Shown: one piece after another, positions 6,968-15,982 of the stretch
Numbering within the stretch: the first letter of the stretch is position 1
Layout of the letters: the number at the start of each line of letters is the position of its first letter
Source: Escherichia phage IME08
Sequence record: NC_014260.1
Reading direction: 5' to 3' (one strand)
DNA length: 64,000 bases
Notes under the pieces: model-generated
Told to the model about the DNA's origin: nothing
Database searches by the model: none
Seen by the model: only the letters and a program-made list of their open reading frames with translations
Position numbers and translations under genes: made by a program

Positions 6968-8527
6968 ATGAAAAAGAATGCATTAGTTCAAAAATGGTCC
7001 GCTCTGCTGGAAAACGAAGCTCTTCCTGAAATCGTTGGTGCTTCTAAACAAGCTATCATCGCTAAAATTTTCGAAAACCAGGAACAAGACATCCTGACTG
7101 CTCCAGAATATCGTGACGAAAAAATCTCCGAAGCATTTGGTTCTTTCCTGACTGAAGCTGAAATCGGTGGTGACCACGGTTATGATGCTACCAATATCGC
7201 AGCTGGCCAGACCTCTGGTGCTGTAACTCAGATTGGGCCGGCAGTAATGGGTATGGTTCGTCGTGCTATTCCTCATCTGATTGCTTTTGATATTTGTGGT
7301 GTTCAGCCTCTGAATAACCCTACTGGTCAGGTATTTGCACTGCGTGCAGTATACGGTAAAGACCCTATCGCTGCAGGCGCTAAAGAAGCTTTCCATCCGA
7401 TGTATGCTCCGAACGCTATGTTCTCTGGTCAGGGTGCTGCTGAAACTTTCGAAGCACTGGCTGCAAGCAAAGTTCTGGAAGTTGGTAAAATTTATTCTCA
7501 CTTCTTCGAAGCTACCGGTGCTGCACACTTCCAGGCTGTTGAAGCTGTGACCGTTGATGCAGGCGCTACTGATGCCGCTAAACTGGATGCTGCTGTTACC
7601 GCTCTGGTTGAAGCTGGTCAACTGGCTGAAATCGCTGAAGGTATGGCTACTTCTATCGCTGAACTTCAGGAAGGTTTCAACGGTTCTACCGATAACCCGT
7701 GGAACGAAATGGGCTTCCGCATCGACAAACAAGTTATCGAAGCTAAATCCCGTCAGCTGAAAGCAAGCTACTCTATCGAACTGGCACAGGACCTTCGTGC
7801 AGTACACGGTATGGATGCAGATGCTGAACTGTCCGGTATCCTTGCTACCGAAATTATGCTCGAAATCAACCGTGAAGTTATCGATTGGATTAACTACTCT
7901 GCACAGGTTGGTAAATCTGGTATGACCAACACCGTTGGCGCTAAAGCTGGTGTGTTTGACTTCCAGGACCCGATTGATATCCGTGGTGCTCGTTGGGCCG
8001 GTGAGAGCTTTAAAGCCCTTCTGTTCCAGATTGATAAAGAAGCAGCCGAAATCGCTCGTCAGACCGGTCGTGGTGCTGGTAACTTCATCATCGCTTCCCG
8101 TAACGTAGTTAACGTACTGGCTGCAGTTGATACTTCTGTAAGTTATGCAGCTCAAGGTTTGGGTCAGGGTTTCAACGTTGACACAACCAAAGCAGTATTT
8201 GCCGGTGTTCTTGGTGGTAAATATCGTGTTTACATCGACCAGTATGCTCGTTCCGATTACTTCACCATCGGTTATAAAGGTTCTAACGAAATGGACGCAG
8301 GTATCTACTATGCTCCGTACGTTGCACTGACTCCGCTGCGTGGTTCCGATCCGAAGAACTTCCAACCGGTAATGGGCTTCAAAACTCGTTACGGTATCGG
8401 TATTAACCCGTTCGCTGACCCAGCTGCTCAGGCGCCTACCAAACGTATTCAGAATGGTATGCCTGACATCGTTAACAGCCTCGGTCTGAATGGTTACTTC
8501 CGTCGCGTTTACGTTAAGGGAATTTGA
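6968..8527 (+). CDS. 23: Major capsid protein gp23
   Basis: 519 aa; recalled T4 gp23 similarity, position after gp22. Confidence 0.97.
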   Translation: MKKNALVQKWSALLENEALPEIVGASKQAIIAKIFENQEQDILTAPEYRDEKISEAFGSFLTEAEIGGDHGYDATNIAAGQTSGAVTQIGPAVMGMVRRAIPHLIAFDICGVQPLNNPTGQVFALRAVYGKDPIAAGAKEAFHPMYAPNAMFSGQGAAETFEALAASKVLEVGKIYSHFFEATGAAHFQAVEAVTVDAGATDAAKLDAAVTALVEAGQLAEIAEGMATSIAELQEGFNGSTDNPWNEMGFRIDKQVIEAKSRQLKASYSIELAQDLRAVHGMDADAELSGILATEIMLEINREVIDWINYSAQVGKSGMTNTVGAKAGVFDFQDPIDIRGARWAGESFKALLFQIDKEAAEIARQTGRGAGNFIIASRNVVNVLAAVDTSVSYAAQGLGQGFNVDTTKAVFAGVLGGKYRVYIDQYARSDYFTIGYKGSNEMDAGIYYAPYVALTPLRGSDPKNFQPVMGFKTRYGIGINPFADPAAQAPTKRIQNGMPDIVNSLGLNGYFRRVYVKGI

Positions 8528-8557
8528 TAACATAAGTTATTAATTCTTAAATTATTT

Positions 8558-8575
8558 GGGAGACTTCGGTCTCCC
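8558..8575 (+). terminator. Rho-independent terminator after gp23
   Basis: GGGAGAC-TTCG-GTCTCCC hairpin followed by T-rich tract. Confidence 0.6.
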
Positions 8576-8585
8576 ATTCTTGTTT

Positions 8586-9257
8586 CTATAACTTATAGCA
8601 ATCGTCAAATTGAGGCCTTGTTTCTTTAATCCAATTACGAATGGTAGCTCCGGTAACATTAAAAAATTCGGCGGCGGTTTCGTATCTGTCAAATCTATAT
8701 CCTTTAATCATTATATCAACAAATACAAATTTCTTACCTTTATTAGAGTTCTCTCTAATTTTGGCTTTATGTTCTTCCGATAGTTTCCTACCTTTAAGAT
8801 GAGAATCCCTATTCTCATAAAACTTTTTATTAGCTATAGATTTGTTTTCTCGGTGCTCTTTGGATTCTTTAGAACCTGTTTTCGATTTAGACATTTTGGC
8901 CCTTACTTCCTTGGTCATACCTGCCTTGGTCTTTTCGGATAACATCTCACGATACCCAGGTTCCTGTAAAGCTACTATAACAGGATTACCCTTACCACCT
9001 AAAGCTGCATTATAAGTATCTGTTCTCATAACAAAAGCCTCGTCAACTAGTTCGGCTTCCTTAGCATACATCTCTTCAGATGTTTCGAAATTGAAAAGGA
9101 TTTCCTTTTTAAAATTCTCTAAGCCGTATTTCTTTATGGATTTTACTATGTTAACCCCGGAGCCCATATAAGAATCATTAACATCTGTAGTGGCATGGGC
9201 TCCAACATAAATCTTGTTATTAATGAGATTGGTTATTTTGTAAATTAAATAATTCAT
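8586..9257 (-). CDS. segD: GIY-YIG homing endonuclease, SegD-like (free-standing mobile gene)
   Basis: N-terminal LIYKITN...NKIYVGA GIY-YIG motif; T4 segD occupies same position between 23 and 24. Confidence 0.8.
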   Translation of the reverse strand: MNYLIYKITNLINNKIYVGAHATTDVNDSYMGSGVNIVKSIKKYGLENFKKEILFNFETSEEMYAKEAELVDEAFVMRTDTYNAALGGKGNPVIVALQEPGYREMLSEKTKAGMTKEVRAKMSKSKTGSKESKEHRENKSIANKKFYENRDSHLKGRKLSEEHKAKIRENSNKGKKFVFVDIMIKGYRFDRYETAAEFFNVTGATIRNWIKETRPQFDDCYKL

Positions 9258-9260
9258 ATT

Positions 9261-9527
9261 TTACGCTGCTTTGACACGACGGTTGATGATATCACGGAAG
9301 TCAATACGATTTTCTTGGATTTTCAGCCAGTTACCAGATTTGTCTTTGGTATGGGTAGAGTATTCACCGTTCCACCAGAAGTCGGTAGCATAAGCCATGG
9401 CTTCGTATTTCTTAACTAGTGCATTCACTGCATTACCGTTAGGATTGGAACCATATTTTTCTACCAGGGCTTTGATGTCTTTATCAAGAGCGGAAAGAGT
9501 AGTACGAATAAAGTTTAACTTGTTCAT
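9261..9527 (-). CDS. Hypothetical early protein upstream of segD-like gene
   Basis: ORF with AGGAG RBS; start set to MNKLNF because upstream ATG overlaps promoter; preceded by early promoter. Confidence 0.5.
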   Translation of the reverse strand: MNKLNFIRTTLSALDKDIKALVEKYGSNPNGNAVNALVKKYEAMAYATDFWWNGEYSTHTKDKSGNWLKIQENRIDFRDIINRRVKAA

Positions 9528-9556
9528 TTTTAATCTCCTCATGTTTTGATAGGTCT

Positions 9557-9586
9557 ATAGTAACATGTGATAACCTTGCTGTAAAC
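9557..9586 (-). promoter_or_regulatory. T4-type early promoter (GTTTAC-N18-TACTAT)
   Basis: Minus strand reads GTTTACAGCAAGGTTATCACATGTTACTATAGACC. Confidence 0.55.
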
Positions 9587-9592
9587 AACTTT

Positions 9593-9600
9593 TATAAATA
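9593..9600 (+). promoter_or_regulatory. Late promoter TATAAATA upstream of gp24
   Basis: Exact TATAAATA about 28 nt before ATG. Confidence 0.6.
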
Positions 9601-9628
9601 AACATATACCCTCAATAAGGAAAGCGCA

Positions 9629-10909
9629 ATGGCAAAGATTAACGAATTACTGCGCGAGTCAACAACTACTTCTAGCAACTCATTGGGTCGCCCTAATCTT
9701 GTTGCTTTGACCCGTGCTACAACCAAATTGATTTACCGTGATATTATTGCTGAACAACGTACTAGCCAGCCTATTGCTGCATTGTATGGTGTCAAATATC
9801 TTACCCCTGATAATGAATTCAGTTTCCAAACTGGTGCTGTTTATGGCGGTGAAGTTGGTTCTAAAGACCGTGAAACTATCCCAGAACTCACAGATAAGGC
9901 CCAGGCGATTGCCAAGGGTGAATATTTCAAGTATCAGAATATTGTTTATAAGGCTCTTCAAGCAAGCCCACTCGCATCCACTAGCGCTACAGAATTGGCT
10001 GATGCCCTTCAAGAAGGTTTGGTGTCATTAACATGTCGTCTGGTTCCTGATGCGGCTCACACAGAGAAATTCGAAGCAGGTGATGTTGAAATTAGCAATG
10101 CAGTATTCCAGGTTAATAAATGGAACGCACCTGTTAAGTCTCGTAAACTTAAAACCGCTTTGACTGTAGAACTAGCCCAAGACATGGAATCCAATGGCTT
10201 CGACGCCCCTGCATTCTTAGAAGACCTCCTGGCTACAGTAATGGCAGATGAAATTAATAAAGACGTTCTGCAGTCTCTAATAACTGTATCTAAACGCTAT
10301 AAAGTTACCGGTGTATCTGATAACGGTATTGTCGATTTGTCTTATGACAGTGCTCCGGAATCTGCACGTAAACTTTATGAAATGGTTTGTGAGATGAATT
10401 CTGAAATTCAGAAAACCACTTCTTATTCAGGTACGTTTGTTGTCGCATCTAGTCGTGTAGCTGCAATGCTTGCTGGTTCAGGTTGGTTGAAACATAAACC
10501 AGAAGATGAAGCTTGGCTCCCAGAAACCGCTTATGGTTATTTGATTAACGGATTGCCTGTATTCTGTGATGTTAATAGTCCTTTAGATTATGTTATCGTG
10601 GGCGTTAAAGAAGATTACGGCGGTAATGAAGTGGTTGGTTCTATTTTCTATGCTCCGTATACCGAAGGTCTGGATTTAGACGACCAAGAACATGTTGGTG
10701 CCTATAAAGTTATTGTAGACCCTGATAGTTTGCAACCGGCTATTTCTCTGATGGTTCGTTATGCACTTTCAGCAAACCCATATACCGTTGCTAAAGATGA
10801 TAAAGAAGCTCGTGTTATAGACGCAACTAATATGGATTTAATGGCAGGGCAGAGTAACATGTCTTATCTGCTTGGTGTTAAACTTCCTCCAATTATTTAC
10901 GAGGCATAA
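9629..10909 (+). CDS. 24: Head vertex protein gp24
   Basis: 426 aa; close to recalled T4 gp24 (MAKINELLRESTTT...). Confidence 0.95.
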   Translation: MAKINELLRESTTTSSNSLGRPNLVALTRATTKLIYRDIIAEQRTSQPIAALYGVKYLTPDNEFSFQTGAVYGGEVGSKDRETIPELTDKAQAIAKGEYFKYQNIVYKALQASPLASTSATELADALQEGLVSLTCRLVPDAAHTEKFEAGDVEISNAVFQVNKWNAPVKSRKLKTALTVELAQDMESNGFDAPAFLEDLLATVMADEINKDVLQSLITVSKRYKVTGVSDNGIVDLSYDSAPESARKLYEMVCEMNSEIQKTTSYSGTFVVASSRVAAMLAGSGWLKHKPEDEAWLPETAYGYLINGLPVFCDVNSPLDYVIVGVKEDYGGNEVVGSIFYAPYTEGLDLDDQEHVGAYKVIVDPDSLQPAISLMVRYALSANPYTVAKDDKEARVIDATNMDLMAGQSNMSYLLGVKLPPIIYEA

Positions 10910-12193
10910 ATGAAAAAGATTAATGCATTAATACAAGAATCAACTTTGACGGCGGCCAACCAGGTCGCCCGTCCTAATCTTCTTTCATATACCCAGGCAA
11001 CTAATAAAAGAATTTTTAAAGCCCTTGTTGCTGAACAAAAAACTACTCAACCTGTTGCAGCATTATATGGTGTCCGTGTTTTAAACCCAGACGATAAAAT
11101 GACTTATCTCGGCGGAGCCACTTTTGCAGGCGAAATTGGTATGTTCGAACGTAAAAACATTCCTGAATTCACCGATAAAGACGAAGCATATGCTGTTGGT
11201 GATATGTTCCAATTCGAAAGTGTGGTTTTCAAGGTATTAGAAGCTTCTCCGTTTGCAGGAACAACTGAAACCGATTTGGGCGAAGTTATTTCAGAAGCTA
11301 TTGCCGCAGGCCATATTCGTATGATGTCTGATGCAGCCTTTACCAATAAATTTGAAAAAGGCCATCCTGAGATTGCTGAAGCAGGATTCCGTATTGATAA
11401 GTGGCAGACTGAAGTTAAATCGCGTAAACTTAAAACTTCTTTGACTGTAGAACTGGCCCAGGATTTAGAATCCAACGGGTTTAATGCACCAGACTTTATA
11501 GACAATATTTTGGCTATTCAAATGGCCGAAGAAATTAATAAAGACGTATTACAGTCCTTAATTACGGTAAGTTCTCGTTTTAAAGTCCAAGGAGTTTCCG
11601 AGAAAGGCGTCTTGAACTTAACAGACCCACAATATGATAACGCCCAAGACCGAGCGCGTACCTTGTATTACTATATGTGTGAAATGAATTCTGCTGTTCA
11701 ACGCCAGACTTCGTTTGCAGGTACTTATGCAGTAGCTTCTTCTCGTTGCGCCGCTATTTTAGCTGCATCCGGTTGGGTTGAGAAAAAAGAAGACCAAGAC
11801 GAATTAGCTTATGGCATATTAAAGAACGGTCTACCACTTTATGCTGATATGAATAGTCCGTGTGATTATGTTATTGTCGGTGTAAATGCTCAGATGGGTG
11901 AAGGGCAGACGGTCGCATCTTTGTATTATGCGCCTTATACGGAAGGGCTCGAAGAAGTTGATGATGAAGGTGATACTTCAGTAGGTGAATTCAAGGTTAT
12001 TGTAGACCCAGATTCATTGCAACCTACCATATCTTTATTGGCTCGGTATGCATTGACTGCGAATCCTTATACCGTCGCTAAAGACGACAAAGAAGCTCGT
12101 ATTATTGACGGTGCGGATATGGACAAAATGGCTAATCAAAGTCAATTGAGTTCTTATCTTGGTGTTAAACTTCCTCCACTTGAAAAAAGCTAA
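10910..12193 (+). CDS. gp24 paralog (second vertex-protein-like gene, diverged)
   Basis: 427 aa colinear with gp24 along full length but substantially diverged; start ATG directly follows gp24 stop. Confidence 0.9.
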   Translation: MKKINALIQESTLTAANQVARPNLLSYTQATNKRIFKALVAEQKTTQPVAALYGVRVLNPDDKMTYLGGATFAGEIGMFERKNIPEFTDKDEAYAVGDMFQFESVVFKVLEASPFAGTTETDLGEVISEAIAAGHIRMMSDAAFTNKFEKGHPEIAEAGFRIDKWQTEVKSRKLKTSLTVELAQDLESNGFNAPDFIDNILAIQMAEEINKDVLQSLITVSSRFKVQGVSEKGVLNLTDPQYDNAQDRARTLYYYMCEMNSAVQRQTSFAGTYAVASSRCAAILAASGWVEKKEDQDELAYGILKNGLPLYADMNSPCDYVIVGVNAQMGEGQTVASLYYAPYTEGLEEVDDEGDTSVGEFKVIVDPDSLQPTISLLARYALTANPYTVAKDDKEARIIDGADMDKMANQSQLSSYLGVKLPPLEKS

Positions 12194-12205
12194 TAGGAGA
12201 AATAT

Positions 12206-12412
12206 ATGGTAGATGAAACCCTGTTTGGTCATGACGGAAGAGGCAACTTTAGTGGCAAATCCTTAATTCAGCCAGAAGAGTCTATTATAATTCCGTTTTC
12301 GAACATCAGAATTTCTACAGAAAAGATAAAGTTAAATGAAGTTGAAGTTAACAATTTAGCAAAAAGTATTTTAGAATCAACAACCCAAGAAGAGGTTCAT
12401 AGTGTGTTTTAG
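12206..12412 (+). CDS. Small ORF A (68 aa) with N-terminal LFGHDGRG motif; probable N-terminal segment of the collagen-like protein
   Basis: ATG with AGGAG RBS; ends at TAG 12410-12412 three codons after the collagen-like frame opens. Confidence 0.5.
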
Positions 12413-13602
12413 GAATAAACAATTCCCAGATAGAGCCAATAGAGGGTCCGCCGGGCCCTCAAGGAGACCCGGGCCCACAAGGTATTCAAGGCCCGCCCGG
12501 CCCTCAAGGAGACCAAGGTCCACAAGGTATTCAAGGCCTTAAAGGAGATAAAGGAGATACAGGTCCACAAGGTATTCAGGGCCTACAAGGACCCAAAGGA
12601 CCTAAAGGAGACCAGGGTCCACAAGGCATTCAAGGGCCTATAGGTCCTATAGGTCCCGCAGGGCTAATATGGAAAGGAGAATGGGATGTAGATACACTTT
12701 ACTCTGTCGATGATGCTGTTGGATATGCAGGTGCATCATATTTTTGTATAGCCGAAAATACCGGTAATATACCCACAGAATCGCCGGAAAACTGGGCCTT
12801 ATTAGCATCGCAAGGAGCTAGAGGAGAATCAGGGGCCCAGGGCCTACAAGGACCCAAAGGGGATAAAGGAGATACGGGTCTTCAAGGTATTCAAGGACCC
12901 AAAGGGGATAAAGGAGATACAGGTCTTCAAGGACCTATAGGGCCTATAGGACCTAAAGGAGACCAGGGTCCTCAAGGTTCTAGAGGTATTCAAGGTATTC
13001 AAGGTCCCCAAGGAGACCAGGGCCCACAAGGTTCTAGAGGTATTCAAGGTATTCAAGGACCTCAAGGAGACCAAGGTCCGCAAGGCCTTCAAGGACCCCA
13101 AGGAGATAAAGGAGAGGATGGATTCGGAATTGATTCTAAAATAAGTGGGGTATATAAAATTCCTGCATCCGGAACCAAAGGACAATTTTATATAAACTTA
13201 CCTGGGGCAGGTGGTCTTAGATTGATTGTATCAACGGCTGGGACAGGTAATGCTGTTAAAATAGGATACGGAGGTAACTCTAGCACTGTTCAAAGAACAT
13301 TTACTATAGGATATAATTTAACAGCTAATTATACCGATTTGGCAAAAATAAAAACCGGTAGGATAAATTATACAGGGTATACTTCGGTTTCATATAGTAG
13401 CGATACAACGGCTCTAGTCGGATATGGGGATATGTATACAGCAATAGCCTCTAATAAAGATACTTTAGATTCATGGCATATAGTAATATCAGGCGTAGTG
13501 GCAAAATCATCTGCTTCGGCCACTGATGGAAGATTACTTATATCTGTAACTAAAGTTTTTGATTCCGAAACTCAACAGATTCAAACAGGTGAAATATATT
13601 AA
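12403..13602 (+). CDS. Collagen-like fibre protein (two Gly-X-Y blocks, CBM5/12-like linker, C-terminal globular domain); no canonical start codon
   Basis: Continuous open frame of about 400 codons; 24 and 34 Gly-X-Y triplets; first ATG/GTG/TTG in frame is TTG at 13222. Confidence 0.75.
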
Positions 13603-13608
13603 AACATA

Positions 13609-13626
13609 AAGGGCCGCAAGGCCCTT
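13609..13626. terminator. Bidirectional hairpin terminator between collagen-like gene and rnlB
   Basis: AAGGGCC-GCAA-GGCCCTT perfect stem between convergent genes. Confidence 0.6.
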
Positions 13627-13631
13627 ATCAT

Positions 13632-15115: not shown

Positions 15116-15982
15116 ATGATTGCACTTAAAATAAATGGTCCTAGATATGAATTGGTTGGTAAGACTGTAACGTTGTATACCGCATTTGTATTACCAGCAG
15201 GTTTGACTCTAGATGATATAGAAATTAATTGGTATAAAAATAATGTCCATGTCCCACAACTTCCTATTGAAGACCCTTTTGAATTGAATTTATGGGATGT
15301 TGGATATCCGGCGGCAGGAACATTTTATGCAACTATAACAAACAAGAAAAGTGGTGAAATAACAAAGAGTAATGAAATAGAACTTGAAATAGGTGTCATT
15401 CCAAGAAGAGTAATCCTGGATATAAGCTCTAGGGAATTAATATATGCCGATATAGGAGAAACCGTTTCACTTCGCCCGTCGTGTAGAGTAGAACCTACTT
15501 ATGCCGTACGTGATTGTAGATGGTATAGAAATGGAGTAGAATTATCTAACGATGAAGATATTGATATAACAATAGATAGTTCTGATAAATTCGGTACATA
15601 CATGTTGAAATCTATAGCGACCTGCGAAGGAGCGTATATCCCTGCTTCTGAAGAACTTTTAGTTGAAATAAAACCTAGAGGGGGTGTATTGCAGTGCCCG
15701 TTCATATATGATAACGACCTTAATGCCTATTTACCATATGGCGGCGGAAGAAATGAATCTTATATGTGGATAGGTTGGTGGGTGTGGGACGAAATAAGAG
15801 AAGCCGTTAGATTAGGAGAAGATTGGACGTTGGATATAAACAACAGCCGTTACAAGTATAAATGTGAGTTACAAAAAGTAGCCGACCTTTTGTCTAAGTA
15901 TCATGAAGTAGAGATACAAGAATCTAGAAACGGATATATTCTGGGGCGTAAAGACTTGCTTTATGTTCCGCCTGTACCATAA
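15116..15982 (+). CDS. Hoc-like capsid decoration protein paralog (two Ig-like domains plus Hoc-type C-terminal capsid-binding domain)
   Basis: C-terminus ESYMWIGWWVWDEI...EVEIQESRNGYI parallels Hoc SAYIWCGWWVMDEI...EVDVQESRNGRI; AAGGAGG RBS. Confidence 0.85.
   Translation: MIALKINGPRYELVGKTVTLYTAFVLPAGLTLDDIEINWYKNNVHVPQLPIEDPFELNLWDVGYPAAGTFYATITNKKSGEITKSNEIELEIGVIPRRVILDISSRELIYADIGETVSLRPSCRVEPTYAVRDCRWYRNGVELSNDEDIDITIDSSDKFGTYMLKSIATCEGAYIPASEELLVEIKPRGGVLQCPFIYDNDLNAYLPYGGGRNESYMWIGWWVWDEIREAVRLGEDWTLDINNSRYKYKCELQKVADLLSKYHEVEIQESRNGYILGRKDLLYVPPVP

Follow-up and report, generated by a model that had tools for sequence, protein, structure and literature searches.

An ancient and conserved pair of adjacent capsid vertex protein genes in Escherichia phage IME08

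The window analysed here is a stretch of 64,000 nucleotides (nt) of DNA from Escherichia phage IME08 (NC_014260.1), and all coordinates refer to it unless another record is named. In its late head-gene cluster the list of open reading frames (ORFs) contained two intact plus-strand frames, both starting with ATG, at 9629–10909 (426 amino acids, aa) and 10910–12193 (427 aa), which are called 24a and 24b below. The gene order of the cluster was 23, a segD-like gene, an orf, 24a, 24b, an insert and rnlB, compared with 23, segD, 24 and rnlB in phage T4. At the junction, which reads ...GAGGCATAA|ATG, the TAA of 24a occupied 10907–10909 and the ATG of 24b 10910–10912, leaving a spacer of 0 nt. The following features were assigned.

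9593–9600, plus strand: T4-type late promoter consensus TATAAATA, exact match, first base 36 nt before the ATG of 24a.
9617–9621, plus strand: Shine-Dalgarno sequence AAGGA of 24a, 7 nt before the ATG.
9629–10909, plus strand: gene 24a, T4-type capsid vertex protein of 426 aa (70% to T4 gp24; PF07068; ratio of nonsynonymous to synonymous substitution rates, dN/dS, 0.04–0.15).
9629–9658, plus strand: predicted propeptide of 24a, the 10 residues MAKINELLRE with L-x-E at the end, identical to the T4 gp24 N-terminus.
10901–10904, plus strand: Shine-Dalgarno sequence GAGG of 24b, within the last codons of 24a and 5 nt before the ATG.
10910–12193, plus strand: gene 24b, diverged second vertex-protein paralogue of 427 aa (56% to 24a; 1YUE; PF07068; dN/dS 0.04–0.10).
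10910–10939, plus strand: predicted propeptide of 24b, the 10 residues MKKINALIQE with I-x-E at the end, assigned by motif conservation.
6968–8527, plus strand: gene 23, major capsid protein of 519 aa, a more distant paralogue of both (PF07068, E = 6e-123; 99.8% to JS98 gp23).

By BLASTP, residues 1–422 of 24a aligned end to end with residues 1–424 of 24b, with 239/428 identities (56%), 76% positives, 10 gap positions and three small indels (E = 6e-180), a similarity far beyond chance. An earlier reading of the sequence (the original prediction) had described two adjacent colinear ORFs, the second starting right after the stop of the first, and had judged by eye that the first copy was close to T4 gp24 and the second much diverged. 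The coordinates and the alignment bore out the former statement, and the latter could be quantified: 24a was 70% identical to T4 gp24 with one gap, and 24b 56%. Both proteins matched the Pfam family PF07068 over profile positions 3–376 of 376 (E = 1.5e-98 for 24a and 6e-98 for 24b) and PHROG 138 (E = 4e-132 and 2e-124, respectively). In the Protein Data Bank (PDB), 24b aligned with T4 gp24 in 1YUE over residues 1–424 against 1–423 (E = 5e-150) and matched the T4 gp24 structures 5VF3 and 8GMO at full length, while its match to gp23 chains reached just E ~ 1e-11 over residues 156–390. Each gp24 copy was 28% identical to the gp23 of the window over about 250–280 C-terminal residues. 24a and 24b are genuine paralogues of the gene that encodes the vertex protein in T4, and because they are 56–70% identical to a solved structure over their full length, the fold of both is beyond doubt. 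The predicted mature proteins were near-identical in bulk (45.3 kDa for 24a and 45.7 kDa for 24b, pI 4.6 for both), and they would therefore co-migrate on gels.

Positions 9000–12193 were 97–98% identical to coliphages IME341, MN04 and JS98, all of the genus Dhakavirus, and the window is that of a JS98-like Dhakavirus. Each copy was 99% identical in amino acid sequence to its JS98 counterpart and fell into the matching clade with 100% bootstrap support; the gene order, the abutting junction (gap of 0 nt), the position of the late promoter and the location of the cassette between gene 23 and rnlB were also the same. Differences were confined to the surroundings, where the window had two genes that JS98 lacks: one for a SegD-like homing endonuclease, located between 23 and 24a, and a collagen-like one of 1.4 kb, inserted after 24b and ahead of rnlB. 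The JS98 GenBank record (EF469154 / NC_010105) annotates 24a and 24b as 'gp24 head vertex protein', JS10 is likewise annotated with 24a/24b, VR5 with 'capsid vertex protein I' and 'II', and CGG4-1 with 'head vertex protein I'. About 90 phage records contained, for each copy, a match with 80% identity or more, and calling of the pair is routine in about that number of phage genomes. The gene pair is thus already known at the annotation level and has been in public records since the JS98 genome record, and the novelty implied by the original prediction, which had itself named such annotation as a refutation, has to be given up. The second copy is an annotated gene in close relatives; it is not universal, since AnYang, MX01 and KIT01 have a single gp24. 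No discussion of the pair and no virion proteomics of a two-copy phage were found in the open-access literature searched in full text, and a PDB search returned capsid structures from T4 and none from a two-copy phage. As to labels, the record of Enterobacter phage Q7622 calls its true 24a 'major capsid protein' and gives the name 'capsid vertex protein' to a 487-aa gene downstream of rnlB (L005, 6788–8251, minus strand), and several records label gp24 genes 'major head protein'. Annotation of the family is inconsistent, and plain name searches therefore miscount the copies.

The history of the pair was examined by phylogeny. In a neighbour-joining (NJ) tree of 24 sequences, 24a grouped with the gp24 of T4, Karamvirus and AnYang, with 24b left outside (99% bootstrap), and the 24b orthologues formed a clade of their own (100%) on a long stem of about 0.21 substitutions per site. 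The grouping of 24a with T4-type gp24 was stable at 94–99% bootstrap for gamma shapes from 5 to 0.6, and a topology with a as sister to b appeared in 0 of 200 replicates. The copies were thus not each other's closest relatives, as recent in-situ tandem duplicates would be, and the fresh duplication implied by the original prediction is at odds with this phylogeny. A search of 5.8 billion proteins yielded divergent 24b-like sequences at 66–69%, one of them from Erwinia phage FBB1; on every one of their contigs that was read, an a-like gene followed gp23, with the b-like gene directly behind it. Altogether, a 24b-type gene stood directly behind a 24a-type gene in 28/28 loci with a readable neighbourhood (16/16 from IMG/VR, 7 from GenBank or the window, and 5 for the divergent 24b-likes). 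A single-copy lineage with 24b only was found neither in the 50,697-record phage collection nor in IMG/VR, nor among the 66–69% matches whose context was read. The pair was found in Dhakavirus, Gelderlandvirus, Kanagawavirus, a Klebsiella phage, Erwinia FBB1-like contigs and metagenomes.

When the divergent 24b-likes were added to give an enlarged tree of 47 sequences, all b copies stayed together in a single clade (100%), which was divided into two sub-clades. The FBB1-like a copies were basal in a 97%-supported 'a-type' group that comprised T4, Moonvirus, Karamvirus, EcS1, PEi20, PM2, AnYang and the 24a clade, and the branch setting them outside T4 plus 24a had 78% support. Relative to the gp24 of Jiaodavirus and Tegunavirus, the b clade was poorly placed in this tree (22–23% support). 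Across 36 genome pairs, a-a and b-b identities correlated at r = 0.94, and the a-versus-b identity within genomes was constant at 54–57%. At the deepest split b-b identity (66–71%) exceeded a-a identity (62–64%), and the order was reversed at shallow splits, a pattern that points to some past recombination. By the Tajima test, 24b had about 1.7–1.9 times the unique substitutions of 24a (chi-square of 10.7 and 6.8 with PspYZU05 and Berthold as outgroups, respectively); faster evolution of 24b alone does not explain the tree topology. The GC content at third codon positions (GC3) of 24b followed that of 24a in every genome, which gives no sign that either copy was acquired recently. Gene conversion between the copies was ruled out by their nucleotide identity of 62%, a longest identical run of 21 nt and mirrored clade topologies. 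These results showed that the pair is ancient and conserved and not a recent duplication. In the simplest reading of the sequences, one ancient duplication (or capture) would have preceded the radiation of these phages, the pair would have been inherited together, and single-copy lineages, including that of T4, would have arisen by secondary loss or replacement. The single-copy state of T4 may thus be secondary, a view with moderate support.

Close relatives with a single vertex gene were also found. AnYang, classified as a Dhakavirus, has a gp23 98.3% identical to that of the window and flanks of 94–96% nt identity, and alignment of its region (L008, 1132–2781) with window positions 8528–12193 revealed a single gp24 between gene 23 and rnlB. 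This gp24 was 73% identical to 24a in nucleotides and 68% in amino acids, and 53% identical to 24b in amino acids. A deletion chimera of 24a and 24b was ruled out as its origin by these identities (68% and 53%) and by its branching outside both clades. The AnYang-type single gp24 occurred in about 19 records, among them MX01, KIT01 and Shigella phage SP18. Within residues 161–519, AnYang gp23 contained no residue absent from the gp23 of two-copy Dhakavirus phages, and no gp23 residue in this range was found to co-vary with the cassette type. Kanagawavirus was mixed as well, with the pair in Q7622 (L005) and a single gp24 in Edwardsiella phage PEi20, so that the number of vertex genes is polymorphic in a second genus. 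The pair is exchangeable and not structurally mandatory: one or two vertex proteins suit practically the same gp23 shell, and this speaks against two being strictly required by the structure.

Purifying selection on both copies is strong. Pairwise dN/dS values by the Nei-Gojobori method (NG86) in seven two-copy genomes were 0.04–0.15 for 24a and 0.04–0.10 for 24b, and synonymous sites between 24a and 24b were saturated. The possibility that 24b is a decaying copy was ruled out by its dN/dS. The motif (L/I)xE is the cleavage consensus of the gp21 protease. It was present at residues 8–10 of both copies and of all orthologues examined, and the extended form (L/I)-x-E-S (residues 8–11) occurred in 24a and 24b alike and was retained by every b copy looked at, with FBB1-like and metagenomic sequences among them. 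The mature T4 chains in 5VF3 and 8GMO aligned from query residue 11, and in T4 the first 10 residues of gp24 are removed by gp21 (PMC9958956). By these motifs, 24a and 24b would be expected to undergo the same cleavage in IME08.

The first alignment, with its seven two-copy genomes, was used together with four single-copy reference gp24s to map the differences between the copies. At 46 positions the a and b clades had different fixed residues; examples lie at T4 positions 25–36, 56–57, 66–68, 244–245 and 288. Of the 46, 16 were b-derived (24a being identical to all four references) and 2 a-derived. The differences clustered at T4 residues 21–40 (7 sites) and 281–300 (6 sites and a 4-residue deletion in b). 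The most conserved regions were C-terminal, with 80–85% a-b identity at T4 residues 361–400. Residues 61–140, which presumably form a surface-exposed insertion domain, were variable inside both clades. In T4 the N-terminal region of gp24 becomes, after expansion, an ordered arm that touches neighbouring subunits (PMC9958956), and by analogy sites of fixed difference may lie at subunit interfaces in IME08.

The expression signals were compared among 23 two-copy loci. A late promoter motif was present at −33 to −36 of 24a in 23/23, GAGG or GTGAG preceded the ATG of 24b by 5–8 nt in 23/23, and the gap between the 24a stop and the 24b start was −1 to +2 nt in all of them. The exact TATAAATA motif occurred 16 times in the whole window against 6.1 expected from shuffles; 8 of the 16 were on the plus strand in the first 9.6 kb, which holds the head-gene cluster. 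With up to one mismatch allowed, no late promoter motif was found inside 24a of the window. An independent late promoter for 24b was rejected, as none (≤1 mismatch) was present inside 24a of the window or of 7/9 relatives; the motifs inside 24a of the other 2/9 were both almost 1 kb upstream of 24b. It appears that 24b would obtain its late promoter through co-transcription alone. The cassette is framed by two terminator-like hairpins:

8557–8576, plus strand: hairpin after gene 23, with an 8-bp stem containing 5 GC pairs, followed by a T-rich tail.
13609–13626, bidirectional: first terminator-like hairpin downstream of 24b, common to rnlB.

The former would separate the gene 23 transcript from the vertex cassette, and the latter is likely the end of the late transcript. 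No terminator-like hairpin was seen between 24a and 24b, and no such site was found on the plus strand from 12193 to 13609. As judged from these signals, 24a and 24b are almost certainly expressed from one late promoter, in agreement with the original prediction, and their co-transcription and translational coupling are well supported.

The genes next to the cassette were variable. On the minus strand at 8586–9257, between 23 and 24 as is segD in T4, lay a gene for a GIY-YIG homing endonuclease, 56% to T4 SegD; it was present in IME341 and UP19 and absent from JS98, VR5 and JS10, and it appears to be a mobile element of patchy distribution beside the vertex cassette. The 1.4-kb insert between 24b and rnlB (12194–13631) was lacking in JS98 and IME341 and had no match above about 70% in phage records. 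It codes for a 'tail-fibre-like' protein with collagen repeats (PHROG 5073, E = 8e-106; Pfam Collagen, E = 4e-29). The gene was split: a 68-aa ORF at 12206–12412 held the conserved N-terminus (…FGHDGRG…), and the collagen part was open in the −1 frame to a stop at 13602, with a TTG at 13222 as the first start codon of its own. One added T in the run at 12407–12410 would join both parts, and the homologues in JS10 and metagenomic contigs were single ORFs of about 330–350 aa; the split might reflect an error in sequencing, a programmed frameshift or a pseudogene. In two-copy contigs of FBB1-like or metagenomic type (L041, 2676–4506; L042, 4890–6427; L045, 5326–6841), the same collagen-like gene with 'FGHDGRG' directly followed 24b on the same strand, and then came a Hoc-like gene. 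A homologue of this Hoc-like gene is the window ORF at 15116–15982, which is also homologous to the capsid-binding C-terminus of T4 Hoc (43% over 77 aa). The collagen-like gene of the window (12206–13602) had no late promoter or terminator of its own. It may be speculated that its product is a head decoration co-expressed with the vertex genes and not a tail fibre.

We take 9593–12193 to be the conserved two-gene vertex cassette of the JS98-like T-even phages, in which 24a is the T4 gp24 orthologue and 24b an ancient co-travelling paralogue, and we consider it probable that both contribute virion pentamers and improve fitness. In the mechanism we propose, one late mRNA starting at about 9600 would cover 24a and 24b, and 24b would be translated by coupling to 24a, giving roughly similar amounts of both proteins. 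The gp21 prohead protease would remove the 10-residue propeptide from both. Each would be built as pentamers into the prolate head, and the 11 vertices other than the portal one would most likely be shared out between homopentamers of 24a and homopentamers of 24b. The pair would benefit fitness without being an architectural necessity, because near-identical gp23 shells work with a single foreign gp24. A candidate benefit is capsid robustness, as gp24 and vertex composition have been linked in T4 to capsid robustness and environmental resistance (PMC10580926). Several points weigh against this reading. The virion presence of 24b, and even of 24a, in IME08 is what we infer from the sequences; homopentamers versus heteropentamers and their stoichiometry are put forward purely by reasoning; searches for proteomic or cryo-electron microscopy data on two-copy phages gave none; and the AnYang-type replacement weakens models in which two proteins are structurally required.

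Both copies share with T4 gp24 (1YUE, 5VF3, 7VS5, 8GMO) the family, length, genomic position, late promoter and, by prediction, the N-terminal propeptide; T4 has one gene, whereas two-copy phages have in addition a 24b that differs from 24a by the 46 fixed differences and three small indels. The vertex protein of T4-like phages arose from the major capsid protein by duplication (PMC9958956), and 24a/24b resemble gp23/gp24 as a further duplication round of an HK97-fold capsid gene in the same late cluster. However, gp23 and gp24 are about 21–28% identical and have distinct roles (hexamer versus pentamer), whereas 24a and 24b are 56% identical and both gp24-like throughout. In the 'bypass-24' mutants of T4, point mutations in gp23 allow it to fill the vertices without gp24 (PMC3012670, PMC10580926). 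Like the AnYang-type replacement, this indicates that the vertex composition of T-even phages is evolutionarily flexible, but bypass-24 takes away a vertex protein and the 24a/24b locus adds one. Outside viruses, CsoS4A and CsoS4B are adjacent paralogous pentamer vertex proteins of alpha-carboxysomes, which have an icosahedral protein shell. They offer an analogy for redundant or shared vertex occupancy, but their fold is unrelated, the carboxysome is a cellular organelle and not a virus, and no homology is implied.

With regard to origin, two other explanations were weighed. A recent lineage-specific tandem duplication of gene 24 with rapid divergence of the downstream copy is very improbable and already largely refuted. 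The adjacency, common orientation and almost equal length of the genes would be consistent with it, as would the 1.7–1.9-fold unique substitutions and the stem of about 0.21 substitutions per site of 24b; but it conflicts with the 94–99% grouping of 24a with T4, Karamvirus and AnYang, with the failure to recover a as sister to b in any of the 200 replicates, with the saturated synonymous sites between the copies, and with the spread of the pair over several genera and metagenomes at a constant 54–57% a-b identity. It is also conceivable, though unlikely, that 24b is a xenologue which came from a distant T-even phage, was inserted behind the resident gene and then spread horizontally as part of the cassette; this reading bears on origin alone and can stand beside the functional model. 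The AnYang locus, in which flanks of 94–96% identity enclose a single-gene interior of 73%, shows that the gene-24 module can be exchanged, and one- and two-gene states occur both within Dhakavirus and within Kanagawavirus. The identity order that reverses between deep and shallow splits suggests reticulation, and no more than 2 of 300 bootstraps of the gp23 tree, whose deep nodes were weak, grouped the two-copy phages as a monophyletic set. On the other hand, no phage or contig had a 24b-like gene as its only vertex gene, the affinity of 24b to Jiaodavirus-like gp24 was weak (62–72%) and fell to 22–23% with more taxa, and the GC3 pattern of 24b equalled that of 24a in each genome.

With regard to function, a rather low probability was given to the view that 24b is not a stable virion component and serves as a decoy, as a vertex protein held in reserve or used conditionally, or as an assembly factor that might, for instance, set off activation of the prohead protease. 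Purifying selection along the whole of 24b, strongest conservation in the C-terminal regions common to 24a, retention of the propeptide motif and of near-identical size and charge, coupled translation that implies abundance at a structural level, and long-term co-retention in many lineages all speak against it. Nevertheless, one vertex protein suffices for a practically identical gp23 shell, T4 gp24 can be bypassed by gp23 point mutations, and attachment of T4 gp24 has been suggested as the trigger of protease activation (PMC9958956, PMC3012670), which would leave room for such a role. Mixed heteropentamers of 24a and 24b at every vertex are less probable still, since a five-fold ring cannot place two subunit types symmetrically and a single heterologous gp24 can stand in for the pair; the coupled and presumably near-equimolar synthesis, the strict co-inheritance with co-divergence at r = 0.94, and the 7 of 46 fixed differences at T4 residues 21–40, where inter-subunit contacts form after expansion in T4, would fit that arrangement.

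The cassette of two vertex proteins forming separate pentamers, which we favour, could be extended to a wider reading, to which we attach little likelihood. In it, the two-gene state would be ancestral for many enterobacterial T-even phages, the T4 lineage would have lost 24b, and distinct homopentamers would occupy the geometrically non-equivalent apical and shoulder vertices; if true, these would be the first penton paralogues of a tailed phage to be specific for a vertex position. In the same reading, 24b might also be an attachment point for the product of the collagen-like fibre gene, which repeatedly lies just downstream.

The question raised by the locus can be sharpened: why are two vertex proteins kept under strong purifying selection in many T-even phages, when a near-identical gp23 shell functions with one? 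It may further be asked whether the single gp24 of T4 is the derived state and whether the vertex cassette is a horizontally exchangeable module. JS98-like phages have been used in phage-therapy cocktails, and in view of this use and of the possible link to capsid robustness, a defined role of 24b would be of some practical interest.

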